Assembly (NCBI GenBank): GCA_934149245.1
Contig: CAKPER010000005.1
Coordinates: 367-64,366, forward strand
Direction of reading: 5' to 3'
DNA from: an uncultured Bacilli bacterium
GTDB taxonomy: Bacteria; Bacillota_I; Bacilli_A; RF39; UBA660
Length of the DNA stretch: 64,000 nucleotides
Shown: in pieces, positions 380 to 45,562 of the stretch
Position numbering within the stretch: position 1 is the first letter of the stretch
How the letters are laid out: each line of letters begins with the position of its first letter
Translations under genes and position numbers: made by a program
Notes under the pieces: model-generated
Databases searched by the model: none
What the model was told of the DNA's origin: nothing
What the model saw: the letters and a program-made list of their open reading frames with translations, nothing else

Positions 380-3160
380 TTGAAATGGTATAAGTATTTA
401 TTTTTTTATTGTTTAGTATTTTTTTGCTTTAGTTGTAATGTTTTTGGAATAAGTGTTAAGGATGAAAAATATCCAAAAGATTGTGATGGAAATGTTATAA
501 CTGGATTAGATCAAGAACCTAGTACTGTTAATTTTTCGGATAATGATAGTTGTTCTATTTCTGTTTCAAAGCAAATTAAAGATTTTGATGACACAAAACC
601 TAATCCACAAACTTGTTTGGGTTTTAAAATTGAAGATAAATGGTATAAAAGAGATGTTTTATTGCTTATTGATAATAGTTGGTCGATGAAAGGTAAGGAA
701 CAGCAAGTAAGAAAAATATTTAGAAAAGTAGCTGCACAATTAAAAACTGGAGAAAATATATATGTGAAGTATTTCTTAGGCTCAGAAGGGGCTGAAAAAT
801 ATTCTTTTTCGCAGGTTGATACTAAAAAAAAGCAAGGCGGAATAGCTGGAAAGATTTTAGAATATAAAGATGGCGATTCTACTAAACCTTTAAGGTATGG
901 AACTAATACATATTCTAGTTCTGCACTTAATAAGGCAGCTGATTGGGTAAAAACAGAGGTTAAAAAGAGTGAACATATCCCAATTGTTATTTTTATTACG
1001 GATGGTTATCCTACGGCTTATAAAGATACAGATGGAAATAAGTATGAACTCGGATATCTTTCTTCTGCTAGACATTTTTATGAATTTGCAGTGGCACTGA
1101 AAAATTTGCAAAATCAATTTTTAACAATTAGTAAAAATGGAAAAAATAAACTTATGAATAATAGTATAGTTAAACCAAAGTTTGCCACAATTGGACTTGG
1201 TATTAGTAATGATAAAACTGATATGTCTGCTAAATATCTTTTAACAACTAAAAGTAGTGATTTTGATAATTTAAAAAATCTTACTACTAGTGATAAGCAA
1301 CATAAAGAAGATAAAAGATTTTATCAGTTATTAAACGGTGATATTAGTAGTGGGATTGAACTAACACTTTCGATAGCTTCTAATCCAGATTTAGGCGTTG
1401 TTGGTTATTCAAGTTATAATAGTAGTACTAAGACAGTAAATTTTAAAAATTTTGGAAATATTGATACTACCAATGGTGGAAAATTAGCTAAAGATAATGG
1501 CATTGCAATTGGACCTATAAAAGAAAATTTGATAACTCAAATTAAAAGTAATGGAAGAACAATTAATCATACTAAGAAAGATTTAGATGGAAAGTATACT
1601 GGGTATAGTATTATTTTTCTTAAAAAAGCAGATGTGTGGAACACTTTGAAACAAAATAAAACTATTTCTATTCATCTTAGAAACTCTAATGCTTTAATGA
1701 AATATAATATTAATCGATCTGCAATAGGTTCTACTTTGAATGGTTTTATTGATTATTATAAGTTTTCACCAACTGATGTAGACTTAAATGATATTATTTC
1801 TGTTTTAGAAGTTAAGTCTAATGTTGGTAATGTTTCTAAAGGGAATAAAGATATTGACTATAAAAAAAGGACATATTATGGTTTAAACAGTGATTATAAA
1901 TATTTAGATTTAAATGGTAGGGGATATGTTAGACATTGTTCGAAAGAAAAACTTATTAAAAATGATTCTGAATGTTCTGCTGTTTATGTAAATGAAATAC
2001 GTGTTAAATATTTTATCAATTATAGTTTGGTTTTTAACGCTGGGACACTGAAAACTGAAAATAAAGAATCATATTCTCCTGGATTGGGCTTTAAATTTAG
2101 TGGAATTGATACCGCTTTTCATAATAGTTGGTATTATGCATACTATGTTGAAAATAATGTTAGTTCTTCTCCAGTTGTTGAATATAAGTATAGTGGCAAT
2201 TGGTATAAAATTAATTTTGACTCTATTAAGAAAAGCCAAAATATGATTGGCGAACCATTTATGAGTAGAGATGACATATGGAATAAAATTAGCTCTGCTG
2301 TGAAAGTAGAAACTTCAAATTTTAGTGTTAACTATGAAACAGTTTCAAGTAATGATTCAACTATTCTTTCAGAAAGTATTAATGGAAAAATAGAGAGAAA
2401 AAAATCAAATGTTGAAACTAGTAGTGATGGCAATGGCGGAACTCTTTATAATATAAGTGAAACTGATAGTATTAAAAAATCTTGTATTAAGGGAACTAAC
2501 TTTGAATATGTTAATGAAAATGATGAATGCTCTGCTGAATATGCTCAAACTGATAGTTATGCTGGAGAAGATTTTTCTTATATTGAAAAGAATGGTAGGT
2601 ATTATTTTATTCCTTTTGGATATAAACAAAAAACAGTTGATGTTAAAGTAGAACTTAATGTTGCTGGTAAAAATCTTTCTACTACTTGTAAAATTAATGT
2701 TCATAATAATGGTAGTCCTTGTTCAACTAGTAAAGAAGATGGAAATAGTAGTATTGAGGAACAAGTTAGTTATAGATCAATTGATAAAGGTAATCCTTTT
2801 CCTAGAGCGGCTAATAAATATTATTCTATACCGTTAAATTGGAGAAGTTGGTACTGTAATAGCTATGGAACTAGTGGCAATTGTGTACCTGATGACCAAA
2901 ACCAAAGACGTTTAATAAATAGTTATTCGGGTGGGTATTATTATTCCAAACAATATAAGTCTCAGGAGTTGACAGAAATTGCAAATGATACTCGTAATAA
3001 TTCTAGTAATTATTATTCTTCTTGGAATAATATAGATCAATCTGGAAAAAGTAACAGCATTGGTGATAGTGGTATTATAAATAAAAATTTTAGTAGTAAT
3101 ATTGAGAGTTATTGTCCTTTAGGTTCTTTTAGTTCTAATTGTGATGGGGTGATAAAATGA
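380..3160 (+). CDS. Secreted von Willebrand factor A (vWA) domain protein, 926 aa, putative pilus-associated adhesin
   Basis: TTG start after AGAGGTGAG. Signal-like N-terminus YLFFYCLVFFCFSCNVFG. MIDAS-type vWA motifs LLLIDNSWSMKG (DxSxS), GTNTYSS and VIFITDGYPT. No LPXTG. The stop overlaps the next start (ATGA). Confidence 0.65.
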   Translation: MKWYKYLFFYCLVFFCFSCNVFGISVKDEKYPKDCDGNVITGLDQEPSTVNFSDNDSCSISVSKQIKDFDDTKPNPQTCLGFKIEDKWYKRDVLLLIDNSWSMKGKEQQVRKIFRKVAAQLKTGENIYVKYFLGSEGAEKYSFSQVDTKKKQGGIAGKILEYKDGDSTKPLRYGTNTYSSSALNKAADWVKTEVKKSEHIPIVIFITDGYPTAYKDTDGNKYELGYLSSARHFYEFAVALKNLQNQFLTISKNGKNKLMNNSIVKPKFATIGLGISNDKTDMSAKYLLTTKSSDFDNLKNLTTSDKQHKEDKRFYQLLNGDISSGIELTLSIASNPDLGVVGYSSYNSSTKTVNFKNFGNIDTTNGGKLAKDNGIAIGPIKENLITQIKSNGRTINHTKKDLDGKYTGYSIIFLKKADVWNTLKQNKTISIHLRNSNALMKYNINRSAIGSTLNGFIDYYKFSPTDVDLNDIISVLEVKSNVGNVSKGNKDIDYKKRTYYGLNSDYKYLDLNGRGYVRHCSKEKLIKNDSECSAVYVNEIRVKYFINYSLVFNAGTLKTENKESYSPGLGFKFSGIDTAFHNSWYYAYYVENNVSSSPVVEYKYSGNWYKINFDSIKKSQNMIGEPFMSRDDIWNKISSAVKVETSNFSVNYETVSSNDSTILSESINGKIERKKSNVETSSDGNGGTLYNISETDSIKKSCIKGTNFEYVNENDECSAEYAQTDSYAGEDFSYIEKNGRYYFIPFGYKQKTVDVKVELNVAGKNLSTTCKINVHNNGSPCSTSKEDGNSSIEEQVSYRSIDKGNPFPRAANKYYSIPLNWRSWYCNSYGTSGNCVPDDQNQRRLINSYSGGYYYSKQYKSQELTEIANDTRNNSSNYYSSWNNIDQSGKSNSIGDSGIINKNFSSNIESYCPLGSFSSNCDGVIK

Positions 3161-3645
3161 AAATGAGTTTTCAAGCATTGACTCTTATCTTATTAGGTAT
3201 GGTTGGTATTGTAGTTATATCCGTTTTTGAATCTGTTACTATAAATAATGAGTCGTCATATTATGTTTTAAAAGAAGCTATGAAGTCTTCGATGATTGAA
3301 TCTATTGATAAACAATATTATGCAACACATCGTTATTGTAGTAATGATGTTAAGATTTGCCCAAATGCAGGTAACAATAATGGTATAAAGTGTAGTGGAG
3401 CAATAAAGATATCAGAGCAAAAATTTGTTGAAAATTTTACTAGAAGATTTGCTGCTAGTATAAATGGTGATGTTAATAAGTATACTTTAGAATTTTATGA
3501 TATTATTGAGTCACCACCTAAAGCTACTGTTTTGATAAAATCTAATACTACAACTTATACAAATAAAGATAAACAGACTATGGTTCAATCTAGTGCTGAT
3601 ATAGAAAATACTTTGACTGGTATTTTAGAGGTTTATGATTCATAA
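3157..3645 (+). CDS. TadE/pseudopilin-like small protein with N-terminal hydrophobic segment
   Basis: Translationally coupled to the vWA gene. N-terminus MKMSFQALTLILLGMVGIVVISVFE followed by a soluble domain. Position within a Tad-type locus. Family assignment is by context only. Confidence 0.35.
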   Translation: MKMSFQALTLILLGMVGIVVISVFESVTINNESSYYVLKEAMKSSMIESIDKQYYATHRYCSNDVKICPNAGNNNGIKCSGAIKISEQKFVENFTRRFAASINGDVNKYTLEFYDIIESPPKATVLIKSNTTTYTNKDKQTMVQSSADIENTLTGILEVYDS

Positions 3646-3690
3646 TAGTTTCGGCTATTTTGATATAGATAAATAAAGAGGAGGAAGAAA

Positions 3691-4581
3691 ATGAAAGATA
3701 CTTTAAAGAAGTTTCTTGGTAATAAGAATACTGTAACAATTATAGGGGTAGTTTTGTGTATGATTTTGCTGTATGTTTTTTACAATGTTAGAATTAATCA
3801 AAAGGTTGCTTTAGTTAGAATACCTTATGCTAATCAAACTATTCAGCCTAAAACAGAGATTACATCTGATATGATTTCTTATATGGAAGTAGCAGGAGCA
3901 TTTTTGACTAAAGCTTCATATTTGAAGTCTGCTGATGATATAGTTGGAAGATATTCAGGTTATAATACTGTAATAGCAGAAGGAAGTCCTTTTTATTCAG
4001 ATTTAGTTATTGATAAGAAAGATTTACCTGATGCATCATTTATAGATGTACCTAAAGATTATACTGTTATTAATTATAAAGTAGATATGGATAGTACTTA
4101 TGCTAATAGTATGATGCCTAATGATTATATAAATATTTATTTTAAGGGTGTTGGTGATGATGGTAATGTTATGTTTGGTAAATTCTTAAGTAATGTTAAG
4201 ATATTAGATGTTAAAGATGGTTCTGGACAACATGTATTTGAAAATTCTGATGAAGCTAGAACACCTGCTTATATGTTATTTGCGTTACCTGAAGATATGC
4301 ACTTATTATTTAGAAAAGCATTATATTTAGAGGGACAATATGGAGTAGAACTTATACTTATTCCTGATACTCAAGATACTATAAAGAAAGATAGTGAAAC
4401 TATTAGTTCTGCTGATATTCAATCATTTATTGATAGTAAAACTAAGATGGTGTCTGTAAATGAGATTTTATCTTCTACTAAAAGTAAAGTAGATGGAAGT
4501 GATACAACAACAAATACTACTACAACAACAGATACTACTACTAAGAAAAATAATACTAAAACAACTACTAATAATAGATAA
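3691..4581 (+). CDS. CpaB/RcpC-like Flp pilus assembly protein (SAF-domain type) with Thr-rich tail
   Basis: Strong RBS AGAGGAGGAAG. N-terminal TM VTIIGVVLCMILLYVFY. SAF-like segment VALVRIPYANQTIQPKTEITSDMISYMEV...IVGRY...IAEGSPF. C-terminus DTTTNTTTTTDTTTKKNNTKTTTNN. Confidence 0.55.
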   Translation: MKDTLKKFLGNKNTVTIIGVVLCMILLYVFYNVRINQKVALVRIPYANQTIQPKTEITSDMISYMEVAGAFLTKASYLKSADDIVGRYSGYNTVIAEGSPFYSDLVIDKKDLPDASFIDVPKDYTVINYKVDMDSTYANSMMPNDYINIYFKGVGDDGNVMFGKFLSNVKILDVKDGSGQHVFENSDEARTPAYMLFALPEDMHLLFRKALYLEGQYGVELILIPDTQDTIKKDSETISSADIQSFIDSKTKMVSVNEILSSTKSKVDGSDTTTNTTTTTDTTTKKNNTKTTTNNR

Positions 4582-4593
4582 TGGGGTGATTTG

Positions 4594-6105
4594 ATGAATG
4601 AGTTTCAACAAGTAGATTTTGGACCCATAAAAGAATATTTAGATAATGATGATATAACAGATATATCATATAGTAATGGTGGACAAGTTTGGTTGAAAAC
4701 ATTATCTAAGGGAGTTTATAGAGTTGAAAATCCTGCAGTTAATAATGCATTTATGGAAAAGATGGCCTTTCAGTGTGCTAATTCTATGGGAAAAGCCTTT
4801 AATATGGCTAATCCTTTCCTTGATGCAGAAAGTGCTGAGTTAAGAATGAATTTTGTTCATGAATCAATAGCAAAAAATGGAATAGCAGTATTAATTCGTA
4901 AAACACCTGCAAAGATACGATTACAAAAAGATAAAATAATTAAAGAAGATTATATTAGATTAGATATTCATGATTTTTTACTTACTTGTGTTACAGGACA
5001 TTGTAATATATTGGTTAGTGGAGAAACTGGTAGTGGTAAGACAGAATTTATTAAATATTTAGCTGCTCATACAAAAGAAAATGAGAAAATAATAACTATA
5101 GAAGATACTTTGGAACTTCATTTAGATAAAATATTTCCTCATAGAGATATAGTAGCAATGAAAACTAATAATATAGCTAGTTATGCTGATGTACTTGTTA
5201 CTTGTATGAGACAAAATCCTAGATGGATATTACTTTCTGAGGTAAGAAGTGCGGAAGCTGTTATGGCTGTTAGGGATTCTATTTCATCTGGACATAATAT
5301 TTTATCTACAATACATGCTGATAAGGCAGAGAGTATTCCTAGCCGTTTATATAGTTTATTAGAGTCTAGTATAGATATGGATCAATTTTTAAGAAGTATT
5401 CATAGGTATGTACAACTTGGAGTACATATAAAGGGCTATTATAGTTCTGAATTAAAAAGATTTAAAAGAGAAGTAGCTGAAGTAGTAGAATTTTATGTTA
5501 CAGAAGAAAACAAGGCAGAATATAGAATTTTATATAAAAGAACTCCAGATGGACATACTATTCTTAATAATCCTTCTAAATATTTAATTGGATATTTAGA
5601 AAGTCAGGGAGTAATAATGGAGCCAGATATTCTTGTTAAAGAACAATTTCATGATCCTAATGATAATAAAGATAAGAGTACTAGTGTTAATGATAATAAG
5701 CCTAATAATTTAGAACAGAAGTCTACTACTAACAATATTCAGAGTAATTATTCTAATGTTAAAACAAGTACTAATAATATTTCTTCAAATGGGAATATTA
5801 ACAATGTGAATGTACCTAATAAAAATGTAGTAACTAATAGTGTTTATGGTTCTTCTAATCAAATAAATACTAATAATAGTAATATTGTAAAAAATACTAT
5901 TCCTAGTAATGTAGGCTCTAATTTTATAAATTCTCAAATAAATAACCATTCTAATGTTTCTGCTAATGTTAATGGTGTTAATAGTCAAGTTATAAATAGT
6001 AATATTAATACTAGCCCTACAAATGTTTTAAAAAATCCTCAAGATACTATTGTTAATAATCAAAATATGAGGTATAATGTTATTAACAATAGTAGTCAGG
6101 TATAG
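4594..6105 (+). CDS. tadA: Tad/Cpa-type pilus secretion ATPase (TadA/CpaF family) with Asn/Ser-rich C-terminal extension
   Basis: Walker A GETGSGKT, Asp box TIEDTLEL, Walker B WILLSEVR and His box LSTIHA. ATG at 4594 is preferred over TTG at 4591, with GGGGTG upstream. The last ~150 aa are low-complexity N/S-rich. Confidence 0.85.
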   Translation: MNEFQQVDFGPIKEYLDNDDITDISYSNGGQVWLKTLSKGVYRVENPAVNNAFMEKMAFQCANSMGKAFNMANPFLDAESAELRMNFVHESIAKNGIAVLIRKTPAKIRLQKDKIIKEDYIRLDIHDFLLTCVTGHCNILVSGETGSGKTEFIKYLAAHTKENEKIITIEDTLELHLDKIFPHRDIVAMKTNNIASYADVLVTCMRQNPRWILLSEVRSAEAVMAVRDSISSGHNILSTIHADKAESIPSRLYSLLESSIDMDQFLRSIHRYVQLGVHIKGYYSSELKRFKREVAEVVEFYVTEENKAEYRILYKRTPDGHTILNNPSKYLIGYLESQGVIMEPDILVKEQFHDPNDNKDKSTSVNDNKPNNLEQKSTTNNIQSNYSNVKTSTNNISSNGNINNVNVPNKNVVTNSVYGSSNQINTNNSNIVKNTIPSNVGSNFINSQINNHSNVSANVNGVNSQVINSNINTSPTNVLKNPQDTIVNNQNMRYNVINNSSQV

Positions 6106-6118
6106 GATGTGATGATTA

Positions 6119-7015
6119 ATGTTGGAAATAATTTTAATTGGTATAATAGTTTTATTTATAGTTTCTTATAGGTTTAGTTCTGGAGCTGGTGTTTATAAAT
6201 TTATAAATGAACAAGCTACATCATTATATGATAAATATGCTCCTTATTCTTATAAGGAAATGCGTAGTAAAATAAAGAGTTTAGGCATTGATTATACGCC
6301 TAGACAGTATATTACGCAGATAGTTTTACTTGGTGGTTTTTTTGCCGGAGTTGGTTATTTATATTTTTATAGTTTGATAGTTGCTATTGTTTATTTGATT
6401 ATTGCTGTTGCATCTGTACCTTATTTGACATATTTGAGATCTAAGAGGCAGTATAGTGAGTTTATATTTGAACAAATACAAGTGTATGTAACAAATACTA
6501 TAATGGAATTTGCAACAACACAAGCTTTTATAAAATCATTAGAGGGAGTTGTAGAATCTGGTGTATTAGAGGATCCAGTGTTGTCAGATGTTCAGACTAT
6601 GATAGCTCTTTCTTATGAAAAAGGAGATGTACAAGATTCAATTAATTATATGAATGCTAAGTATCCATTTTTTATGGTAAAGAATATGCATCAGTTGTTT
6701 TTACAGGTTACTAAAGAAGGTGCCAAGGATACTGGTGAGATGTTTGAAAATATGCTAGTCGATATAGATGCTTTGGTAGAAGGCGTCTATAGAGATAGAA
6801 TGGATAGAGCAGCCTTTCATAGACAATTTCTTACTTTTGGATTTGCGTTGTATAGCCTTGATATTTTAATACAGTTTTTGGTACAAGTTGATACCTATAT
6901 TTCAATGCTTGATAATATTTTTGTGTGTATAGCATTGCATGTGTTAGTTTTAATAAATACTGGTTTTCTGTTAAAAGGAGAGAGATACTATAATGAGAAT
7001 GTAGGAGCTGAGTAA
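6119..7015 (+). CDS. tadB: TadB-like inner-membrane platform protein (T2SSF-type)
   Basis: Polytopic. Cytoplasmic helical domain between TM segments (SLEGVVESGVLEDPVLSDVQTMIALSYEKGD...). Lies immediately after the TadA ATPase and is paired with a second similar gene. Confidence 0.55.
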   Translation: MLEIILIGIIVLFIVSYRFSSGAGVYKFINEQATSLYDKYAPYSYKEMRSKIKSLGIDYTPRQYITQIVLLGGFFAGVGYLYFYSLIVAIVYLIIAVASVPYLTYLRSKRQYSEFIFEQIQVYVTNTIMEFATTQAFIKSLEGVVESGVLEDPVLSDVQTMIALSYEKGDVQDSINYMNAKYPFFMVKNMHQLFLQVTKEGAKDTGEMFENMLVDIDALVEGVYRDRMDRAAFHRQFLTFGFALYSLDILIQFLVQVDTYISMLDNIFVCIALHVLVLINTGFLLKGERYYNENVGAE

Positions 7016-7016
7016 T

Positions 7017-7823
7017 ATGATTGAGATATTTTTAATAGGCCTAATTGTTTTGTTTGTTATGTTTTATACAGGAAAGATTAATTCAAACAAGTTTGTAGAA
7101 GATAACAAAGATATATTTGATATTTTGAAAGAAAGTGATTATGAATTTTTGCTTTATGCTAAGTACGGCGATAGAGTTTATGATCCAGAAAAGGTGTACA
7201 TGGGTAGAATAAAAAGAGCAGGTATTGCTTTTGCAGTTTTATTTCTAATATTTATGACTAGACTAAACTTTATAAATATTGTTATTTGTTTAATATTAAG
7301 TTTTTTAGTTTTTAAATATGATTATATTAGTTTGAAAAATTATTACAAGCAACATTTAACATTAATAGATTCATTGCTTCCATATTATTTAAAAGGTTTG
7401 GAAGTATTAGTGCAACATTACACAGTTCCTGTTGCACTTGCTAGAAGTATTGAAGATGCACCAGAAGTATTTAAACCAGGTTTAAAAGAGATGGTTGCAA
7501 AGATAGAAGCTGGGGATTCTAGTATTCAACCTTATGTTGATTTTGCTAATAGGTATCCTGTAAGAGATTCTATGAGAATGATGAGACTTTTATATAGATT
7601 AGGACTTGGTGAACAAGAAAAAAAGCACCAACAATTACTTTCTTTTAGTAAAAGTGTATCTAGTTTGCAAGAGAAGTCTAGGGAAGCTAAATATAAGCAA
7701 AGACTTGATAAAATGGAAAATATGACAATGGTAATGCTTATGTGTACTGGCGGATTTGGTTTGATATTAATGTTAGTAGCTATGGTAATGATGTTAGTTA
7801 ATGCTGCTGGGGTTGCTATTTAG
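7017..7823 (+). CDS. tadC: TadC-like inner-membrane platform protein (T2SSF-type)
   Basis: Starts 1 nt after the tadB-like stop. TM-helical domain-TM layout (LPYYLKGLEVLVQHYTVPVALARSIEDAPEVFKPGLKEMVAKIEAGDS...). Confidence 0.55.
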   Translation: MIEIFLIGLIVLFVMFYTGKINSNKFVEDNKDIFDILKESDYEFLLYAKYGDRVYDPEKVYMGRIKRAGIAFAVLFLIFMTRLNFINIVICLILSFLVFKYDYISLKNYYKQHLTLIDSLLPYYLKGLEVLVQHYTVPVALARSIEDAPEVFKPGLKEMVAKIEAGDSSIQPYVDFANRYPVRDSMRMMRLLYRLGLGEQEKKHQQLLSFSKSVSSLQEKSREAKYKQRLDKMENMTMVMLMCTGGFGLILMLVAMVMMLVNAAGVAI

Positions 7824-7855
7824 TGTGTAAAGATATTTAAGGAGGTGATAGTTTT

Positions 7856-8017
7856 ATGAAAGAAACATCAGGTGAGTTCTCAATGACTGTTGTTGTTATA
7901 ATAGGTGCTATTTTGATTGTTGGCATTTTAGCTACTTTGATTCCTAATATGTCTAATTTTATTAATGATAAGTGGCAAGATGCGGTGAATGATCCTAATA
8001 AATATAAAACACCTTAA
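7856..8017 (+). CDS. 53-aa Flp-sized putative pilin (absent from the ORF track because it is under 60 aa)
   Basis: My translation: MKETSGEFSMTVVVIIGAILIVGILATLIPNMSNFINDKWQDAVNDPNKYKTP. RBS AAGGAGGTGA lies 6-7 nt upstream. Short polar leader ending in Gly, then a ~22-aa hydrophobic helix. Located directly after tadC, where flp genes normally sit. Confidence 0.5.
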   Translation: MKETSGEFSMTVVVIIGAILIVGILATLIPNMSNFINDKWQDAVNDPNKYKTP

Positions 8018-8512: not shown

Positions 8513-9484
8513 ATGAATGTACTTGTGTCAAATTTGAATAAAGATAAGTTTAGTAGTTTAGGCGTTGATATAATAAAGTCTATTACTGGAGAATTTGATG
8601 TAGATGAAATAGTTCAATCTTTCTCCAATTTTTTCTTTAATAGAATGTTTTTAGATATAACGGCTATTAAAGATTATAAAAATTTTGCTAATATTCAGAA
8701 ACTTTCTTTGGGGCTTGATGTAGATAAGATTATTATTTTGTTAAATGACGATCCAGTAGTAAATTCTAATATTTATTTAGCAAGATTGGTTAGTATGGGA
8801 ATTTATAATTTTGCTAAAAATATGGAAGAAGTTATGTATTTATATAATAACCCTAATAGTTATAAAGATGTTGCTCATTATCAACAAGTTGAAAATCAAA
8901 CTGTTGATAATATACAGAGTATACAAAATGTATCTAATGAATTGATAATTAATAATGATGTTAGAGTTATTGGAGTTAAAAATATAACTACTCATGCTGG
9001 TGCAACTAGTTTAATCTATATGATGAAAAATATATTAGCTAAATATTATTCTATTATGTGTATAGAAGTAAATAAAAGAGATTTTATGTTTTATAAAAAT
9101 AAAGATATGATTTCTGTTATAGAAAAACAACTATCTGATACTATTTTAAAATATAAAGATGTTAATATTATTTTAGTAGATTTAAATAATTTACCAGAGG
9201 CTGTATGTAATAATATTTGTACTGATATATTGTATTTAGTTGAACCATCTTTATTTAGAATAAACAAATTAATAACTTTGGATAGAGATGTATTTGTTAA
9301 GTTTAATAGTGAAAAAATAATATTAAATAAGAGTTTCTTTACAGAAAAAGATGTTAAAGATTTTGAATTTGAGGGTGATATAAAGATTTTTTATAATATT
9401 CCACCTTTGAATGATCGTATTGATAATTCTAGCGTATTAATGCCTTTTTTAGAAAAACTAGGTTTATTTAGGAAAGATTATTAA
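8513..9484 (+). CDS. TadZ/CpaE-like protein: receiver-like N-domain plus ParA/MinD-fold domain with degenerate Walker A
   Basis: GGAGGA lies 7 nt before the ATG at 8513. The ATG at 8498 is also possible. C-domain VRVIGVKNITTHAGATSLIYMM sits where ParA/MinD proteins have GxKGGxGK[ST]. Later ILVDL (Walker B-like). Last gene before a terminator. Confidence 0.45.
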   Translation: MNVLVSNLNKDKFSSLGVDIIKSITGEFDVDEIVQSFSNFFFNRMFLDITAIKDYKNFANIQKLSLGLDVDKIIILLNDDPVVNSNIYLARLVSMGIYNFAKNMEEVMYLYNNPNSYKDVAHYQQVENQTVDNIQSIQNVSNELIINNDVRVIGVKNITTHAGATSLIYMMKNILAKYYSIMCIEVNKRDFMFYKNKDMISVIEKQLSDTILKYKDVNIILVDLNNLPEAVCNNICTDILYLVEPSLFRINKLITLDRDVFVKFNSEKIILNKSFFTEKDVKDFEFEGDIKIFYNIPPLNDRIDNSSVLMPFLEKLGLFRKDY

Positions 9485-9514
9485 AAAAGATTGATTTTAT
9501 CTTTTTTTTTTTTT
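9485..9514 (+). terminator. Rho-independent terminator closing the pilus operon
   Basis: Stem aaaagat/atctttt with a 7-nt loop, followed by a run of about 11 T. Confidence 0.6.
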
Positions 9515-9545
9515 ATAATTAAGTTGTATTAGTAGTGGAGGATAT

Positions 9546-11093
9546 ATGAAAAAAGTTGTAATAATTGGTGCTGGACCAGCAGGTCTTACGGCTGCTTATG
9601 AGTTGTTAAAAAAATCGAATGAATATGAGGTAATTATTTTGGAAGCAAGTAATTCTATTGGTGGTATTAGTCGTACTGTAAAATATAATGGCAATAGAAT
9701 GGATATAGGTGGTCATCGCTTTTTTTCTAAAAATGAAGAAATATTAGCAATTTGGAAAGAAATTTTGCCTCTTCAGGGTGTTGGAGCATATGATGATAAA
9801 AAGTTAAACAGAAACTTTAATGATACTAATACAGATGTTGATCCAGATAAAACGGATAAAGTTTTATTGATAAGAAATAGAGTTAGTAGAATTTTTTATT
9901 TGGATAAATTTTTTGATTATCCAGTTACATTAAAATTTTCTACTTTAAAAAATTTAGGTTTGTTTAAGACAATTTCGTGTGGTTTTAGTTATTTAAAATC
10001 ATTAATTCATAAAAAAAAGGAAACTTCTTTGGAGAATTTTTATATCAATAGATTTGGAAAAAAAATGTATAGTATGTTTTTTGAGGGATATACGGAAAAA
10101 TTATGGGGTAGACATCCAAAAGATATTTCTAGTGATTGGGGATCTCAAAGGGTTAAAGGATTATCAATAATTGAAATTTTGAGAGATATGTTTTGTAAAA
10201 CCTTTAAAATTAAATCTGTTAATACTGAGACTTCTTTAATAGAAAGTTTTTATTATCCTAAGTTTGGACCAGGGCAACTCTGGGAAAGCATGGCTGCTAA
10301 GATTGAGAAAATGGGAGGAAAAATTTATAAAAACTCTTTAGTTATTAATATTGACTATAAATACAATAAAATAAACTCTGTTAAATATCAAGTTAATGAT
10401 AAAATAGAAAGTATTGATGCAGATATTTTAATATCTTCAATGCCTATTAAGGATTTAGTACAATCTATGGGGAAAAAAGTTCCTAAAGAAGTACAACAAA
10501 TTGCTTTAAATTTACCTTATCGTGATTTTGTTACTATTGGTTTGCTTGTTGATAGACTTAAATTAAAGAATACTACTTCTATAAAAACATTGAATAATAT
10601 TATTCCAGATTGTTGGATTTATGTTCAAGATACTTCTGTTAAATTAGGCAGAATACAAGTGTTTAACAATTGGAGTCCGTATATGGTAAAGGATCCTGAT
10701 AATACTGTTTGGATTGGCTTAGAATACTTTTGTAATGAAGGTGACGATTTTTGGCAAATGACAGATAAAGAATTGTGCAAAATTGCTGTTAATGAATTGG
10801 TAAAAATGAAAATTATAGATAGAAGAAGTGTCTTAGATTATCATTGTGAAAAGGTAAAAAAAGCCTATCCAGCATATTTTGATAGTTATAATGATATATC
10901 GAAGGTTATAAGATATTTAAATAAAATAAGTAATTTATATTGTATTGGAAGAAATGGTCAACATCGTTATAATAATATGGATCATTCTATGGAAACTGCT
11001 ATTTTGTGTGTAGATAATATTATTAATAATATTTCTGACAAAAGTAATATTTGGAATGTTAATTCTGATGATTCATATCATGAAAAGAGGTAG
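9546..11093 (+). CDS. FAD/NAD(P)-dependent oxidoreductase (amine-oxidase/PPOX-like, polysaccharide-locus type)
   Basis: N-terminal dinucleotide fold [18 protein letters not shown]...[15 protein letters not shown] motif. C-terminal [18 protein letters not shown]. Confidence 0.7.
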
Positions 11094-12623: not shown

Positions 12624-13969
12624 ATGTTTAGAAAAAACTGGAAGTATATCTTAATATTTATTGCAGTATTTTTAATAACTTTTATATATCATTTTTTTCT
12701 AAATAATAAAGGTGGTATGGATGAGTTTTGGTGTTATGGCTTTGCTTATAATATATCTAAAGGTCTTATTCCATATAGAGATTTTAATATGATTGTTACA
12801 CCTATGTATTCTTTTGCTGGTAGTGTATTTGTAAAAATAATTGGAAATTATTTGTTTTCTATACATATATTTAATGCATTGATAGTAGCATTGTTTGTCT
12901 CTGTTGGCTATAGGTTTTTAAATAAAAAAGTTTTTATATTATATCTTTTTAGTTTAAGTATTTTGTATCCTTCTTATAATTCTGTTTGTGTTGTTTTATT
13001 TTGCTTCTTTCTATTTTTTTATGATAAAAAATTTAAATATAAAGATTTTTTATTAGGATTAATTATTGCTTGCTTATTTTTAACTAAACAAACTTTTGGT
13101 ATTATGATAATTCCTTTATTATTTTTTAGTAAAAATAGAATAAAGTGCTTAATAGGATTTTTATTTCCTTGTTTAGTATTTTTGATATATTTAATATATT
13201 TTAATGCTTTTTATCAATTTATAGATTATTGTTTTTTAGGAATGTTTGACTTTACTAGTAAGAATTCTTTTAATAATATTTCTGCTTATTTCACAGCCTT
13301 TTTTGAATTCATTATTATAGCAGGAATTATTTATAAATTAAAGATAAAAAATTTTAAAGATCAAATATTAGTTTTTGTTTTATGTTTTCAAATAATGGCA
13401 TTCCCACTTTTAGAGTATCAACATATTTATTATTCATGTATACCAGTATGTTGCTACATTTTAATGAATTATAGTTTAAATAGAATTATATATTTGCTAC
13501 TTGTTATAATATTTGGACTATATTTAGGTATTAATATCTTTTCAAATGTAAGTTCTTCTTATTATCATTTGTATCCAAATAGAAATAGCTTTTTATATGG
13601 AAGAAGTATTAATGGTATTTATGATAAACAGATAGATGCATTATATTCATATTTAGATAAAAATAGAGATGATAATAGAGTGTATATATTCTCTTGTTAT
13701 GCATATTTAATTAGACTTAATAATGGAGAAGTTCCCAATAAATATGATTTAATAAATATGGAAATATGGGATATAACGGAGAAGATAAGTACATTAAAGA
13801 AATAGATAGTTATTGTTCTCAAAATAAATGTATGTTTGTTCTTGTAAGCGAAGATTTAGTTCATCCAAATCAAACTAGTAAGAAAATACTAGATTATGTA
13901 CAGAAAAAATATGATAATATAACTAATTTTGAAGCATTTTCTATATATACAAACGAATTTAGAAAATAG
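12624..13969 (+). pseudogene. Frameshifted paralogue of the 14006..15349 GT-C-like membrane glycosyltransferase
   Basis: ORFs 12624..13805 and 13766..13969 together align end-to-end with the 447-aa downstream protein. Copy 1 reads ttaataaatatggaaatatggg where copy 2 reads ttaataaataatggaaatatgggg. This is a 1-nt deletion near 13758. Confidence 0.7.
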
Positions 13970-14005: not shown

Positions 14006-15349
14006 ATGATTAAAAAGAATTGGAAGTATATTGTTTTATTTATAGTTGCTTTTGTAATAACTTTTGTATATGATTTTTTTATAGTAAGATTAGGAATGGA
14101 TGAAGTGTGGTGCTATGGTTTTACATATAATATTTCTAAAGGTCTTATTCCATATAGAGATTTTAATATGATTATTACCCCATTATATTCGTTTGTTGGC
14201 TCTTTATTTATAAAAATATTTGGAAATCACTTGTTTTCTGTACATATTTTTAATGCTTTATTTTTAGCTTTATTTGTTACGGTTGGATATAAAGTTTTAA
14301 ACAAAAAAATTTTTATATTATGGCTTTTAAGTTTAAGTATTTTATATCCTTGTTATAATACATTTTGTGTTTTAATATTTTGCTTTTTTCTATTTCTTTA
14401 TAATAAAAAATTTAAACATAAGGACTTTGTATTAGGTTTAATTATTGCTTGTTTATTTCTTAGTAAGCAAACTTTAGGAATATTGATACTTCCTTTATTA
14501 TTCTTTAGTAAAGATAGAATTAAGTGTTTAATAGGATTTTTGTTTCCATGCTTGATATTTTTAATATATTTGATATATTTCAATACTTTTTATCAATTTA
14601 TTGATTATTGTCTTTTAGGAATGTTTGATTTTACTAGTAAAAATTCTTTAAAAAATAATTCATTTATATTAACTGCTTTTTTTGAAATAATAGTTATTAT
14701 AACTATTTTGTATAAGTTAATAAAAGGAAAATTTAAAAATCAAAAACTGATTTTTGTTTTGGCTTTTCAAATAATGGCATTTCCACTTCTTGATTATCAG
14801 CATGTTTTTTATGCTTTTATACCTGTTGTTTGTTATATTTTAATGAATTATAATTTAAATAAGATTTCGTTTTATTTGTTTGGAATATTATGTGCTTTTT
14901 ATTTACTTATTTCATTTTATATTGGAACTAATTTAGCATATTTTCATTTATATTCAAAGAAAAATAGTTTTTTATATGGACGTCCTATCATTGGAATTGT
15001 TGATAAGCAGATAGATAAATTGTATTCATATTTAGATAAAAATAAAGATGATAATAGATTATATATATTTTCTTGTTATGCATATTTAATTAGAATTAAT
15101 AATGGAGAGATACCTGATAAGTATGATTTAATAAATAATGGAAATATGGGGTATAAAGGAGAAGAGAAGTATATTAAAGAAATAGATAATTATTGTTCTC
15201 AAAATAAATGTATGTTTGTTCTTATAAGTGAAGATTTAGCAGGTAAGAATCAAACTAGTAAGAAATTATTAGATTATGTACAGAGAAATTATGATAATGT
15301 AACTAATTTTGAGGCTTTTGGAATATATACAAATAATTTAAAAAGATAG
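14006..15349 (+). CDS. GT-C-like polytopic membrane glycosyltransferase (PMT/ArnT-like first-loop DE motif)
   Basis: About 11 TM helices. First extracytoplasmic loop GMDEVWCYGF resembles the DE motif of GT39/GT83 enzymes. Soluble C-terminal domain. Family assignment is by motif and topology only. Confidence 0.5.
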   Translation: MIKKNWKYIVLFIVAFVITFVYDFFIVRLGMDEVWCYGFTYNISKGLIPYRDFNMIITPLYSFVGSLFIKIFGNHLFSVHIFNALFLALFVTVGYKVLNKKIFILWLLSLSILYPCYNTFCVLIFCFFLFLYNKKFKHKDFVLGLIIACLFLSKQTLGILILPLLFFSKDRIKCLIGFLFPCLIFLIYLIYFNTFYQFIDYCLLGMFDFTSKNSLKNNSFILTAFFEIIVIITILYKLIKGKFKNQKLIFVLAFQIMAFPLLDYQHVFYAFIPVVCYILMNYNLNKISFYLFGILCAFYLLISFYIGTNLAYFHLYSKKNSFLYGRPIIGIVDKQIDKLYSYLDKNKDDNRLYIFSCYAYLIRINNGEIPDKYDLINNGNMGYKGEEKYIKEIDNYCSQNKCMFVLISEDLAGKNQTSKKLLDYVQRNYDNVTNFEAFGIYTNNLKR

Positions 15350-15365: not shown

Positions 15366-17987
15366 ATGAAGAAGTATAAATATTATTTAATACCACCTAT
15401 AATAGTTATGTTGATCTTGACTATTATATATTTAATTAATGGAGTATATCCTTTTGGAAAAAATACAATTTTAAACGGTGATTTTCCTAGTGCATATATA
15501 CCTATTTATTATTATATGTGGGATTTATTTAGAGGAAATGCTAATCTTTTTATTAATTTTAAGGTTGGTATGGGGACTTGTATGTATGATTTAACTTCTA
15601 TATATGGAATATTGTCTCCGCTTTCTTGGATAATTGCTTTATGTGAAAGAAGTGATATTCCATATTTTATGTCCATATTATTTATGATTAAGGTAAGCTT
15701 GATATCAGTTACAACATTTATGTTATTTAATAAAGTTTTAAATGGATTAAAGGTATTTTATAAAGTTTTATTTAGTGTTTTTTATGCTCTTAGTACTTAT
15801 GTTATAGTATATTATACTAACTTCGTATGGTTAGATAATTTAATACTATTTCCAGTATTACTTTTGGGAATAAAAAGAATTATTGATAAAAATGATAATA
15901 AATTATATACAATTATACTTTTTTTATCTATTAGCTATTCTTTTTATATTTCCTATATGGAACTTTTATTTATATTATTTTTATCATTTGGTTATATTGT
16001 ATTTTTATGTGATGATAAAACGCAAAAAAGAAAGTTTATTTTCTCTTTAGGAATTGGTACTATATTAGCAATTGGTATGTCTTTGGTATTTCTACTTCCT
16101 GTTATATCTTTAGTTTTTGATTCTGTTAGAAGTGAAGCTTTTAATCCAAGCGGAATTAGTATGATTAGTGCTAATACACTAGATAAGATGATGATAATAT
16201 TAGGTTATGGATTTCCAATACTATTATTTTTAAATTTATTTGTTTTAAAATCTATCCCTAAAAAAATAAAGCATTTTTTTGCTTTTATGATTTTTATAAC
16301 TTGCATTGGGGTAATATTTGAACCTATTAATCTAATGTGGCATACTGGTAGTTATATTATGATTCCATATAGATATGGGTTTATTCCAATTATGGTTATT
16401 TATTTGGGAGCCCTTTTATGTTTATCTAAAGAAAAAAGATATAGAAGTAATGTAGGAAGTATATTTTTAATACTAATTATTATTTTAATAGCTGTTTTAA
16501 TTGGACTATTTATAATATTTATTCCGATCAGTTCTTCTTTAGAACCAGCGTTTGCATTAAGTGATATTAAACAAAACTTAATTATTTCTCTTATATTGAT
16601 AGTAACTTTAATTTTAGGATTTATTCTATTACATTTGAAAAATACTACTTATAGAAATATATTTATGTCTATCATTTTTCTAGTATATTGTGTAGGATTT
16701 GCAGTTGGTTATATTGGAATTTATTCTCCTAAGATAGTTGGTCAATCTACTATTAAGCCAGTTTTAAAATCTAATTCAATGTATGATATATTAAAAAGTG
16801 ATAGTAATAAGTTTGATAGATATAAAAATCTTGATAATGATCTTAGTGATAATTATGGTTTTATAATAGATAAGGCTGTTATATCTAATTGGCATTTGAC
16901 AAATAAAGATAGTTTTTTAACAGCAAGAAAGATGGGATATAGGACAGCAATGTCTATTAATGATAAAGGAGGAACAATATTTTCAGATAATATACTAGGA
17001 ATAAATAAATATATAAGTAGCAAGAAATTAGATAATGATTTATATAGTTTAGAGCAAAAAAATAATAGATATAACTTGTATAAATTGAATAAATATTTAG
17101 GAATGGGAGTTTTATATAATAAAAATAATAATATAGCTAAGTATATTGGAAGTAATTCATTTGCATATCAAAATTATGTATATAGGTATTTATTTAATAA
17201 AGATAGTGCTATACTTAAAAATGTTATTGCTAGAACTGATGGTATTGATGCTTCAGTTAGTACTTTTTGTATAAATGATAAAAGTAAAAAAATAGATTTT
17301 TATGTTGACATTAAGGGAAAAAGCTTGTTATATTTTGGCTACGATAATATGACTATTGGCAAAGATATTATGTATGTTAAAGTAAATGATAAATTTGTTT
17401 ATAATAATAGTGTTGATGGAAGTAAAAAGAGTACATATAACGCATTTGATGGTATAATTAATTTAGGAATTCATTCTAATGAGAAAGTAAAGGTTACTAT
17501 TTATTTGAAAAAAGATACATGTATTTCTAATTATTCATTTGCTACCATTAATTTAGAAGAATTTAATAAATTTATAGATGAAAATAAGAGTAGTGTAGAT
17601 ATAAAACATAAAGAAAATAAACTTTTAGTAAATGTAGATAATAAGGATAATAAAGAAAGTTTATTTTTACCAATTAATTATTTGAATGGATATAAGTGTA
17701 TTGTAAATGGTAAACTTGTTAAGTTAGATAAAGTTTTTGATAATTTTATTAGTATAGATGTAGATAAGGGAAAAAATAAGATAGAACTTATATATTATCC
17801 ACCATTTATAAAGATTGGACTCATAGTATCTATTATATCTTTGATTTTATTTATACTTGTATCAAAAATAAAGATAAGTAATGTACCAATAATTATTCTT
17901 AATATAAGTAGTGTATTATATTATGGAATAGTTGCTATTATGTTTTTTATAGTGTATATATATGCTTTTATTAAATTATTGTTATAG
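15366..17987 (+). CDS. yfhO: YfhO-family membrane glycosyltransferase (GT-C)
   Basis: 873 aa. N-terminal YPFGKNTILNGDFPSAYIPIYYYMWD as in YfhO proteins. Many TM helices, a large extracytoplasmic domain and a terminal TM. Lies near a CsbB/GtrB-like GT2, as in the B. subtilis csbB-yfhO pair. Confidence 0.75.
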   Translation: MKKYKYYLIPPIIVMLILTIIYLINGVYPFGKNTILNGDFPSAYIPIYYYMWDLFRGNANLFINFKVGMGTCMYDLTSIYGILSPLSWIIALCERSDIPYFMSILFMIKVSLISVTTFMLFNKVLNGLKVFYKVLFSVFYALSTYVIVYYTNFVWLDNLILFPVLLLGIKRIIDKNDNKLYTIILFLSISYSFYISYMELLFILFLSFGYIVFLCDDKTQKRKFIFSLGIGTILAIGMSLVFLLPVISLVFDSVRSEAFNPSGISMISANTLDKMMIILGYGFPILLFLNLFVLKSIPKKIKHFFAFMIFITCIGVIFEPINLMWHTGSYIMIPYRYGFIPIMVIYLGALLCLSKEKRYRSNVGSIFLILIIILIAVLIGLFIIFIPISSSLEPAFALSDIKQNLIISLILIVTLILGFILLHLKNTTYRNIFMSIIFLVYCVGFAVGYIGIYSPKIVGQSTIKPVLKSNSMYDILKSDSNKFDRYKNLDNDLSDNYGFIIDKAVISNWHLTNKDSFLTARKMGYRTAMSINDKGGTIFSDNILGINKYISSKKLDNDLYSLEQKNNRYNLYKLNKYLGMGVLYNKNNNIAKYIGSNSFAYQNYVYRYLFNKDSAILKNVIARTDGIDASVSTFCINDKSKKIDFYVDIKGKSLLYFGYDNMTIGKDIMYVKVNDKFVYNNSVDGSKKSTYNAFDGIINLGIHSNEKVKVTIYLKKDTCISNYSFATINLEEFNKFIDENKSSVDIKHKENKLLVNVDNKDNKESLFLPINYLNGYKCIVNGKLVKLDKVFDNFISIDVDKGKNKIELIYYPPFIKIGLIVSIISLILFILVSKIKISNVPIIILNISSVLYYGIVAIMFFIVYIYAFIKLLL

Positions 17988-43440: not shown

Positions 43441-44418
43441 ATGAAGAATAGTAGAAAAATTAAAAATACTATTAGATTCTTAATAGGTCTAACTTTAGGT
43501 ATAATAGTATCAGCTATAGGAGTATATGCTGCTACTAAGTATGATGCTAGTGATGTATATTATGATAATTCTAATAGTAGTTTAATGAATATAGATGTTC
43601 AAGGAGCAGTAGATGAATTAGCTGATAAATATAAAAGTGTAATGCCAACTAAATGTCCTAATGGTTACCTTTGTTTAGATAAGAAAACATCTTTAGCTTT
43701 AGGAGATTATGTAAAGATGACACCTACTAAGTCATCTTATACAACAGATAAATCTAAAACTGGATATGATAGTACACAAACTATTAATCCTAAAGAATTA
43801 AATTTATGGAGAGTAATATCTCTAAATAGTGATGGAACAGTAGATATAGTAAGTGAACATGTATCATCAACGACGATATTTTTTCAAGGACAAACAGGAT
43901 ATCAAAATTTAGTCGGATATTTAAATTTACTAGCAAGTCAGTATGAGAATAGTAAATATACAAAAAGCTCAAGGCATTTTGGCTATAATGGCCAGACTGA
44001 ATATATAACAGATACATCTAAATTTACTAACCCAGCTCCTTGGGAATGTGATACAGGAGATAGTTGTAACCCGGTTGAAAGCCAAGGCGGAGGAGATGAA
44101 TTATATGCTAAAGATTATAATTTGGTGAGGAGTGTGTTAGATACACCAGTAGCAAGTAAACCAGATGGCACAAATTATTATTATTGGATTGCATCTCGCT
44201 ATTATCGCTATTATTCCACTACCAACTATGACTGGAAGGGTCGGTGTGTGGACTCGTCGGGTAGCGTTTGCAGCAGCAACCTGTATTTCTATTATAGTTC
44301 GAGTTTCAACTCCAGCAGCGATAGCCGCTCTCTTCGCCCAGTACTGACTCTGAAATCTGGGCTCAAGTATTCAGGAGTTGGTACAGAGGATTATCCTATG
44401 GAAATACAGGGGAGTTGA
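43441..44418 (+). CDS. Membrane-anchored surface protein, paralogue 1, with DGR-type variable C-terminal domain
   Basis: N-terminal signal anchor FLIGLTLGIIVSAIGVYAA. Motif ASDVYYDNSNSSL..IDVQGAVDEL. C-terminus YYYWIASRYY...SLRPVLTLKSG, encoded by a GC-rich block. About 80-85% nt identity to paralogue 2 outside that block (by eye). Confidence 0.8.
   Translation: MKNSRKIKNTIRFLIGLTLGIIVSAIGVYAATKYDASDVYYDNSNSSLMNIDVQGAVDELADKYKSVMPTKCPNGYLCLDKKTSLALGDYVKMTPTKSSYTTDKSKTGYDSTQTINPKELNLWRVISLNSDGTVDIVSEHVSSTTIFFQGQTGYQNLVGYLNLLASQYENSKYTKSSRHFGYNGQTEYITDTSKFTNPAPWECDTGDSCNPVESQGGGDELYAKDYNLVRSVLDTPVASKPDGTNYYYWIASRYYRYYSTTNYDWKGRCVDSSGSVCSSNLYFYYSSSFNSSSDSRSLRPVLTLKSGLKYSGVGTEDYPMEIQGS
44206..44341 (+). 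other. Candidate DGR variable repeat VR1
   Basis: 136-nt GC-rich block. Differs from 45303-45438 at about 37 positions, concentrated on codon positions 1-2 of about 24 codons. The scaffold is otherwise identical (hand alignment). Confidence 0.6.
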
Positions 44419-44543
44419 TGTAAAATGTTATAATTTCTTATTATGTAACTTAGATAGTATATACTTTAATGATTGTTAAATATATTTAATTTTAGATAGT
44501 TATTTATCTTCTTATATAAATTATAAAATAAATAGATAGGTAG

Positions 44544-45509
44544 GTGTTATATATAGTGATAAAAAATAAAAATAATTTAATAGTAGTAATAGGTTTTATT
44601 ATAGGTATTGTTATATCAGCAACAGGAGTATATGCTGCAACTATAATAGGAAAAGGTTCTGATCTTACATATAGTAATACTTCTAGTGGACTTTCTTCTA
44701 CTAATATACAAGGTAGTCTTGATGAACTTTATAAATATAAAGAAAATATTGATTGTCCAGAAGGCAAGATATGCTTGAAACAAAAAAATTCTTTGGCTTT
44801 AGGAGATTATGTAAAGATGACACCTACTAAGTCATCATATACTATTGACACTTCAAAGACTGGATATTATGTTACTTCTATTAATCCCCAGGAATTAAAC
44901 TTATGGCGTGTAATATCTCTAAATGATGATGGAACAGTTGATGTTATAAGTGAGCATGTATCATCAACAACAATATATTTTAAAGGACAAACTGGGTATC
45001 TTAATTTTGTTGGATATTTAAATGAATTAGCTAAACAATATGAAAATAGTACATATACAAAAGGTTCGAGATATTTTGGATATAATGGACAAACTGAATA
45101 TATAACTGATACATCAAAATTTACTAATCCAGCACCATGGACTTGTGATACAGGAGGTAGTTGCAATCCAGTTGAAAGCCAAGGTGGAGGAGATGAATTA
45201 TATACAAAAGATTATAATTTGGTGAAGAGTGTGTTGGGTACAGCAGGAGCAAGCAAACCAGATGGAACGGCATATTATTACTGGGTGGCATCTCGCTATT
45301 ATGACTATTCTTCCGCTACCGACTATCGCTGGGCTGGGCGGTATGTGGGCTCGGTGGGTGTCGTTTTCTACGGCAGCCTGTATAGCTATAGTGGTTCGAG
45401 TTTTAACTCCAACCTCACTGTCGGCTCTCTTCGCCCAATACTGACTCTGAAATCTGGGCTCAAGTATTCAGGCGTTGGTACAGAAGCATATCCTATGGAA
45501 ATACAGTGA
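44544..45509 (+). CDS. Membrane-anchored surface protein, paralogue 2, with DGR-type variable C-terminal domain
   Basis: Same architecture as paralogue 1. GTG start at 44544 or 44556. C-terminus YYYWVASRYY...SLRPILTLKSG. Confidence 0.8.
   Translation: MLYIVIKNKNNLIVVIGFIIGIVISATGVYAATIIGKGSDLTYSNTSSGLSSTNIQGSLDELYKYKENIDCPEGKICLKQKNSLALGDYVKMTPTKSSYTIDTSKTGYYVTSINPQELNLWRVISLNDDGTVDVISEHVSSTTIYFKGQTGYLNFVGYLNELAKQYENSTYTKGSRYFGYNGQTEYITDTSKFTNPAPWTCDTGGSCNPVESQGGGDELYTKDYNLVKSVLGTAGASKPDGTAYYYWVASRYYDYSSATDYRWAGRYVGSVGVVFYGSLYSYSGSSFNSNLTVGSLRPILTLKSGLKYSGVGTEAYPMEIQ
45303..45438 (+). other. Candidate DGR variable repeat VR2
   Basis: Counterpart of VR1. See the alignment in the findings. 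Confidence 0.6.
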
Positions 45510-45527: not shown

Positions 45528-45562
45528 TATCCCCGAGGCCGCCTAAGGTGGCCTTGGGGATA
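45528..45562 (+). other. Long GC-rich hairpin 19 nt downstream of paralogue 2 (DGR target-site hairpin candidate and/or terminator)
   Basis: tatccccgaggccgcc-taa-ggtggccttggggata: a 16-bp stem with two G-T pairs. It is the most GC-rich short segment I saw in the window apart from the tRNA and the two variable repeats. No T-run follows. Confidence 0.7.

Follow-up and report, generated by a model that had tools for sequence, protein, structure and literature searches.

Two tandem genes at 43441-45509 of the stretch analysed here (the window: 64,000 nt, positions 367 to 64,366 on the forward strand of contig CAKPER010000005.1, GenBank assembly GCA_934149245.1, from an uncultured Bacilli bacterium of the RF39 lineage) are most probably targets of a chromosomal diversity-generating retroelement (DGR) of the kind that combines a MutS-like and an Avd protein, the retroelement itself having been deleted in this strain. 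Gene 2 is a paralogue of gene 1 (proteins 70% identical), and each gene carries a variable repeat (VR) at the 3′ end of its open reading frame (ORF), VR1 ending 77 nt and VR2 71 nt before the stop codon. The features of the locus are listed below, where TR is a template repeat and RT a reverse transcriptase; L-numbers here and throughout denote loci on other contigs, and P-numbers denote proteins.

43441-44418, forward strand: target gene 1, an ORF of 325 aa with an identical gene call in L001 and L002.
44197-44341, forward strand: VR1, the variable repeat of gene 1, from an ungapped alignment to the conspecific TR.
44422-44482, no strand assigned: putative deletion scar (filler), the 5′ part of a 73-nt segment that would replace a cassette of ~2 kb.
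44483-44539, forward strand: RT stump, the last 18 codons plus stop, encoding YLILDSYLSSYINYKINR and a stop.
44556-45509, forward strand: target gene 2, an ORF of 317 aa from the GTG at 44556, to which the L001 gene call maps.
45294-45438, forward strand: VR2, the variable repeat of gene 2, from alignment to the TR of L013.
45528-45562, forward strand: G+C-rich hairpin, 19 nt after the gene 2 stop (-15.3 kcal/mol, z = -6.6).

When 44206-44341 in gene 1 is compared with 45303-45438 in gene 2, 37 of 136 nt differ, with 17 mismatches each at codon positions 1 and 2 and three at position 3; the remaining 99 bases are identical. The differences fall in 24 codons, 22 of them changed non-synonymously and two synonymously. 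An earlier note on this DNA, made from its letters alone, had counted 37 mismatches in 136 nt, all but three at positions 1 and 2 of about 24 codons, with identical scaffold bases in between, and these figures are exact (34 mismatches at positions 1 and 2; 99 of 99 scaffold bases unchanged). Its account of what the block contains stands, and only the start has to be moved, the TR-homologous block beginning 9 nt further upstream (44197 and 45294). Over 402 nt of upstream sequence (43795-44196) the two genes differ at 66 sites (16.4%), 40 of which are third positions; counted by codon, 32 of the upstream differences are synonymous and 21 non-synonymous. This agrees with the scattered, often synonymous divergence of about one base in five or six that had been estimated by eye. 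The contrast in codon position between block and upstream sequence gives Fisher p = 8.5e-8, and if the 145-nt repeat had diverged at the upstream rate, its 108 non-variable sites would all be identical with a probability of ~4e-9.

The repeats also differ from their surroundings in composition, with a G+C content of 50% in VR1 and 53% in VR2 versus 26% in the whole window (at third positions, 60% in the repeats versus 13%), which confirms the earlier remark that the block uses GC-rich codons in a genome that otherwise avoids them. Adenine makes up 2% of third positions in the repeats versus 41% upstream (p = 4e-9). From these third-position counts, the GC-rich codons would be explained by adenine avoidance, because the scaffold of a TR must avoid adenine and an AT-rich genome then leaves T, G and C.

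Within the window a degenerate VR-scaffold pattern matches only the two VRs, with no third copy; scans with this pattern of a genome collection (in which this species was not found) and of a viral collection returned nothing, and phage genomes compared with VR1 by blastn yielded nothing either. A profile search with the C-terminal peptide recovered loci from related gut metagenome-assembled genomes, and in four of these, from related species (L003-L006), the block has a third copy that is rich in adenine and lies between two tandem target genes. L003 carries, in order, target 1, a 149-aa MutS_I protein (Pfam E = 3.6e-8, above the Pfam cut-off), a 114-aa Avd-like protein, a TR reading ...NYNWNGRNVNTSGSTSNNNLYNYNSSSFNTNNNNNSLRP, a 322-aa RVT_1 RT (E = 1.5e-12) and target 2, with a third target ~8 kb from the cassette, and the order gene 1, cassette, gene 2 is common to at least five species. 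In some relatives the MutS_I domain is found inside the RT protein itself (RT homologues P0179 and P0207, 447-448 aa; PF00078 plus PF01624); three RTs with MutS_I-like C-terminal extensions are recorded by Wu et al. 2018 (PMC5758913).

The same organisation is found in strains of the species to which the window belongs, conspecific loci being those with flanking genes 98-99.5% identical to those of the window; they came from contigs that encode close homologues. In the window the gene pair is bordered by a class A penicillin-binding protein (PBP) gene, recU and yunB to one side and by polC to the other. L013 and L021 hold a full cassette between the same two genes, at this yunB-polC locus (synteny PBP, recU, yunB, gene 1, cassette, gene 2, polC), arranged on one strand in the order gene 1, hairpin, MutS-like gene, Avd-like gene, TR, RT, gene 2. 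MutS_I and RVT_1 were called in both loci. The L013 Avd-like protein matches NCBIfam DivGenRetAVD over its full length (E = 3.2e-5; 24 bits, below the 80-bit cut-off), and the L013 RT contains IGFMTSQ and YQDD as motifs. On each of the two long conspecific contigs that encode an RT (L013 and L021), it lies at this locus. The prediction of a TR beside an RT and an Avd-like gene therefore proved right for these conspecific strains but not for the window, which has no TR or RT beyond the RT stump. A phage origin was considered and rejected: the nearest viral RTs show no more than 30-51% identity, and the genes around the locus are those of a core chromosome (PolA, SecDF, RelA, PolC, topoisomerase IV). 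Three conspecific states were distinguished at the yunB-polC site.

State A, cassette present: L013 and L021; cassette-bearing strains include ERZ28565136 scaffold_386 and ERZ27287109 k141_189874.
State B, cassette absent, gene 1 and gene 2 separated by ~125 nt: the window, L002, L011, L012, L014-17, L020 and L045-54.
State C, one hybrid gene: L019.

The cassette-less arrangement is present on at least 30 contigs from other cohorts. The single hybrid gene of L019 (6001-6978) is gene 1-like in its 5′ part and has a VR identical to VR2 of the window; it looks like the product of recombination between gene 1 and gene 2 that would have deleted one copy plus the spacer.

The TR of L013 (about 7827-7971) is 145 nt long and reads RYYNYSSTTNYNWNGRNVNTSGDVNNNNLYNYNSSSFNSNNNNNSLRP, with the core AACTATAACTGGAATGGACGGAATGTGAAC...AACAACAATAACAACTCTCTTCGCCCAG. 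It contains 50 adenines, 48 of them at codon positions 1 and 2 (AAC/AAT), so that no stop codons can arise. VR1 departs from this TR at 25 sites, 22 of which are TR adenines, and VR2 at 33 sites, 29 of which are TR adenines (22 of 50 and 29 of 50 TR adenines changed, respectively); the few non-adenine differences each occur in one repeat only. The repeats of L013 itself have two or three non-adenine mismatches to the L013 TR. The window repeats fit the TR as well as these do, and the TR that wrote them was therefore essentially the same as the L013 one. When the TR of another species (L003) is used instead, 26 of the 37 VR1/VR2 differences lie at TR adenines (p = 2e-7). These results support the earlier reading of the two blocks as VRs written by a DGR from one adenine-rich template, and the check proposed with it, that the variable positions should map to template adenines, comes out positive in the conspecific TR.

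In L021 the TR (7832-7978) departs from that of L013 in a 12-nt patch (ATCTCCGGCTTT vs AGTTCGAGTTTC). L021 VR1 (6766-6913) keeps the L013-type patch and has a 3-nt indel, and L021 VR2 (~9800-9960) has 31 non-adenine mismatches and 15 gap columns. The repeats of this strain are out of step with their template, which shows a system that drifts even with the cassette present.

In the window, gene 1 and gene 2 are 125-137 nt apart (the longest ORF of gene 2 begins at the GTG at 44544). Cassette DNA gave only four blastn matches to the window, namely VR1, VR2, 44478-44543 and the hairpin after gene 2; the segment 44478-44543 is 92.6% identical to L013 8978-9045. When the MutS-like, Avd-like and RT proteins of L013 were compared with the 64 kb by tblastn, the sole match was RT residues 293-310 to 44483-44536 (83% identity, E = 0.002). 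The conspecific RT ends in YITLNSYLSSYINYKINR followed by a stop, versus YLILDSYLSSYINYKINR and a stop in the window spacer, and the RT C-terminal peptide SYLSSYINYK is conserved in the RTs of other species. The left junction lies directly after AGTTGATGT at 44421, where L013 and L021 continue with the hairpin and the MutS-like gene. From here the 73-nt filler extends to 44494 (44422-44494), its final 12 nt overlapping the RT stump. The filler recurs with 94-100% identity in every cassette-less allele (L011, L012, L014-17, L020 and L051-54) and is not present at cassette-bearing L013 and L021. On comparison with the cassette-bearing strains, the deletion would have extended from just past the gene 1 stop, the hairpin included, up to the final 18 codons of the RT gene, leaving the 73-nt filler.

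Two other origins of this junction were rejected. One is that the filler is decayed RT sequence, but it resembles the cassette no more than shuffled sequence does. An assembly artefact was excluded because the same junction and the same, unique filler recur in many samples and cohorts, on contigs with names in several formats.

Seven cassette-less contigs were compared with the window base by base, with the following mismatches.

recU-yunB flank: 9-16 of 1364 (~1%).
5′ part of gene 1: 36-40 of 756 (~5%).
VR1: 1 of 145.
Gene 1 tail plus spacer: 8 of 214 (~4%).
VR2: 0 of 145.
Gene 2 tail: 10-11 of 243 (~4%).
polC flank: 31-39 of 3220 (~1%).

In the window haplotype no part of the locus varies less than the VRs, which therefore look frozen, the opposite of what an active target would show. 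VR2 is identical in L011, L019 and L045-L050, and all 23 contigs read with the gene 2 allele P0051 are cassette-less (the gene 2 protein of the window is P0058, found on seven contigs). Essentially one VR1 peptide occurs across 15 distinct gene 1 protein alleles (>70 contigs), the N-terminal halves of which vary; because clustering of proteins at 90% favours members with the same repeat, the DNA comparison of the seven contigs is the stronger evidence. The window repeats would on this basis be fixed, ordinary coding sequence with no local TR or RT. The earlier description of the repeats as repeatedly overwritten accordingly applies to the past but not to ongoing events in this lineage, and the heterogeneity it anticipated at the variable sites of sister strains is absent among these seven contigs of the window's own haplotype.

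In the intact system, the TR transcript would be reverse-transcribed with misincorporation opposite adenines, and the cDNA would overwrite, in each of the two flanking genes, the final ~145 nt of the variable domain, randomising ~24 AAC/AAT-templated codons and leaving the adenine-free scaffold untouched. A pattern of this kind might be sought without any retroelement history, in positive selection on a binding surface together with gene conversion that keeps the scaffold identical, since the block is a binding-surface-like C-terminal region and the gene bodies are unusually divergent between strains (10-15% versus 1% in the flanks), suggesting diversifying selection. Selection cannot, however, account for 51 of 58 differences lying at adenines of an independently found template, for the fall in third-position adenine from 41% to 2%, or for an RT stump between the genes; selection alone is already refuted by the mapping onto TR adenines, and this explanation is hardly credible. 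The cassette-less arrangement could instead be ancestral, the cassette having been inserted in a minority of strains and the window having lost nothing. Cassette-less contigs do outnumber cassette-bearing ones among those sampled, and the filler has no detectable homology to the cassette, but cassette-less strains already hold TR-fitting repeats of the adenine type and must therefore have been exposed to a TR earlier. With the conserved RT C-terminal codons (SYLSSYINYK) present in the spacer, and the gene 1, cassette, gene 2 order shared by at least five species, an ancestral cassette-less state appears quite improbable.

Several points weigh against a system that was deleted and then became frozen. 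The view extends over 64 kb only, so that a second cassette elsewhere in the genome is conceivable; the fixed state is judged from assembled contigs, and the cassettes of L013 and L021 are themselves only presumed to be active. DGRs are known to act on remote, non-adjacent targets (PMC5758913), and in L003 the third target and the cassette are ~8 kb apart. The scar is common to at least five cassette-less haplotypes (the window, L014, L020, L051 and L052), which differ in their adenine-type repeats. The filler of L051 is identical at 73 of 73 positions, and its VR2 differs from the TR at 29 sites, 28 of them adenine; compared with the window, L051 has 3 differences in 80 nt of gene 1 tail, 0 in 73 nt of filler and 0 in the 61-nt stretch upstream of gene 2. 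Same-scar haplotypes with different repeats that fit an L013-type TR near-perfectly (one non-adenine mismatch among the 29 in L051 VR2), like the documented remote targets and the conserved downstream hairpin kept at gene 2, are what would be expected if the repeats were still live and diversified in trans by a cassette outside the 64 kb. Against this, VR1 and VR2 vary at 1 and 0 of 145 sites across compared contigs of several cohorts with flanks ~1% apart, the gene 1 hairpin has been lost, and the RTs of L013 and L021 are both at this locus. Differences in the repeats are also always accompanied by 12-15% divergence of the adjacent gene body, pointing to allele exchange, and no strain pair with the same gene body but different repeats, as expected of activity in trans, was found. 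Diversification in trans is on balance considered unlikely, and loss of the cassette followed by fixation of the repeats remains the preferred explanation.

The gene bodies upstream of the VRs (43801-44196 and 44901-45293) are 12-15% divergent between conspecific haplotypes, versus ~1% in the flanks. This divergence is not caused by the DGR, because it lies outside the TR-templated region, and points to old alleles, or to diversifying selection along with recombination. With gene bodies this different and a nearly identical scar region, the occurrence of the same scar with different repeats is attributed to recombination, which would have exchanged the central segment (cassette or scar) between divergent target alleles. 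At the edges of this segment (the 80-nt gene 1 tail and the stretch upstream of gene 2) the haplotypes hardly differ, the gene bodies farther out being those that are 12-15% apart, and a single TR fits the repeats of no fewer than three haplotypes (the window, L051 and L013). More speculatively, and with considerable doubt, cassette and 73-nt scar may behave as two exchangeable alleles between the paralogues: homologous recombination would bring the mutator module in, both repeats would be rewritten, the scar would be swapped in later and the result would be frozen. Such exchange, if true, would amount to a population-level on/off switch for targeted hypermutation. Alternatively, the repeats were written after the scar had formed, in which case a DGR would have acted in trans.

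The gene 1 protein has an N-terminal membrane anchor followed by an unannotated extracellular domain of ~240 aa with VR1 at its C-terminal end. It has 702 homologues. Across 67 homologues, column entropy averages 1.57 bits over residues 246-300 versus 0.55 bits over residues 60-245; at columns 246-300 the residue spectra (N, S, Y, D, G, R and others) are as AAC codons would be expected to yield. Across the whole family, 99 distinct VR peptides occur among 121 proteins. The domain family comprises 3300 clusters at 50% identity, with many different N-terminal architectures, and the target proteins are probably membrane-anchored, surface-exposed ligand binders. Pilin-type N-terminal methylation motifs were seen in six of 66 distant relatives of the target domain. 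Longer homologues of the domain are encoded at a different locus in L018 (10001-11707, P0005, 568 aa; and 9018-9971), next to hisS, argS and a gene for a 2459-aa Flg_new-repeat protein. A VR matching the TR was not found at the L018 locus, and the domain apparently also exists outside DGR control.

Neither window protein has a Pfam or NCBIfam match, and no Pfam family covers the variable domain in 148 family members. FGE-sulfatase and DUF1566 were not matched by any of 82 plus 66 family members at lenient thresholds, one member of the 82 has a weak DUF6273 match below significance (E = 0.015), and the family profile matches no PDB sequence at E <= 10. A model of full-length gene 1 protein is too poor to use (predicted local distance difference test, pLDDT, 65; helix at residues 4-22), and Foldseek searches with it against PDB and BFVD were uninformative. 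The domain alone (residues 85-325), modelled with 82 homologues, reached pLDDT 91.7 and a predicted template-modelling (TM) score of 0.90, and shows two long helices and, after them, a series of long beta-hairpins in which the repeat lies. Foldseek of this domain model against PDB gave no match (best E = 0.2, TM <= 0.15). The resemblance to C-type-lectin or formylglycine-generating enzyme (FGE) folds that had been suggested for the C-terminal end is accordingly unconfirmed, the model being confident and having no PDB match, and Pfam FGE-sulfatase and DUF1566 being absent.

The hairpin downstream of gene 2 has a 3-nt loop and an invariant apex, CCTAAGG, and is separated from the VR by ~90 nt. 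It recurs after target genes in five species, with compensatory changes in 10 of 13 base pairs (L003 7273-7305; L004 ~7283 and ~10309; L005 ~10300 and ~13236; L006 ~7282 and ~10300; L013 ~6992 and ~10034), and is found 3′ of both target genes in L013 and L021. No copy follows gene 1 in the window, and gene 2 and the third target of L003 also have none. The hairpin is not in Rfam; an Rfam scan of the window gives one tRNA only. Hairpins with a variable stem and a conserved apex have been described at DGR target sites (Guo et al. 2011, PMC3240598), but those of phages have 4-nt GRNA loops and lie 4-34 bp from the VR. The element may be a DGR target-site element, a terminator or the 5′ boundary of the cassette transcript.

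Elsewhere in the window, a second pair of tandem paralogues (12624-13805 and 14006-15349; 393 and 447 aa, without Pfam match) shares 82-85% DNA identity over ~730 nt and adjoins a gene for a YfhO-family membrane protein (15366-17987). At 380-8000 lies a gene cluster in which 380-3160 encodes a VWA-domain protein of 926 aa and 4591-6105 a secretion/pilus ATPase of the T2SSE type. A human-gut metagenome scaffold (ENA ERZ28613546, scaffold_861) matches the window, and an identical copy occurs in a Hadza sample (ERZ4561222).

A DGR leaves an adenine signature that is recognisable in raw sequence even where the retroelement is absent; genomes can therefore hold orphaned VRs, which RT-centred DGR finders are expected to miss. 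The locus also provides a natural comparison at one site, between strains with the cassette, a common cassette-less scar and one fused gene, with cassette-less haplotypes that each have a different fixed variant. This makes it possible to ask how frequently targeted hypermutation is turned off in the human gut, and which variants become fixed.

Among known systems, DGRs of Architecture D combine MutS-like (MSL), avd, TR and RT and include that of Legionella pneumophila (Wu et al. 2018, PMC5758913). The cassette of the relatives resembles these in having a small MutS_I protein, an Avd-like protein, TR and RT on one strand and in serving several targets, but two paralogous targets flank it and their target domain has no Pfam family, and the window itself retains only the RT stump. 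As in the prototype of Bordetella phage BPP-1 (Mtd), TR and VR differ specifically at adenines, AAC/AAT codons abound in the TR, the VR occupies the 3′ end of the target ORF and a G+C-rich hairpin with variable stem and conserved apex lies downstream (PMC3240598), here with a smaller loop and at a greater distance; unlike that of BPP-1, the system is chromosomal rather than phage-borne, and its domain model gives no match to a C-type-lectin structure. One TR for several targets, which can lie away from the RT, is also a feature of the Treponema denticola DGR and others (PMC5758913), but in genomes of that type RT and TR are present, whereas the window locus has neither and its repeats are invariant across strains. 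Placement of the VR at the C-terminal end of a globular domain is shared with the DUF6273/'tentaclin' targets of gut phages, the globular domain of which is likewise not linked to C-type lectins by standard sequence searches (PMC10743442, PMC11792537). Unlike those targets, the proteins described here are cellular and membrane-anchored, with a single sub-significant DUF6273 match and no structural match. The kind of system is already known, and what is added here is within-species polymorphism for loss of the cassette.

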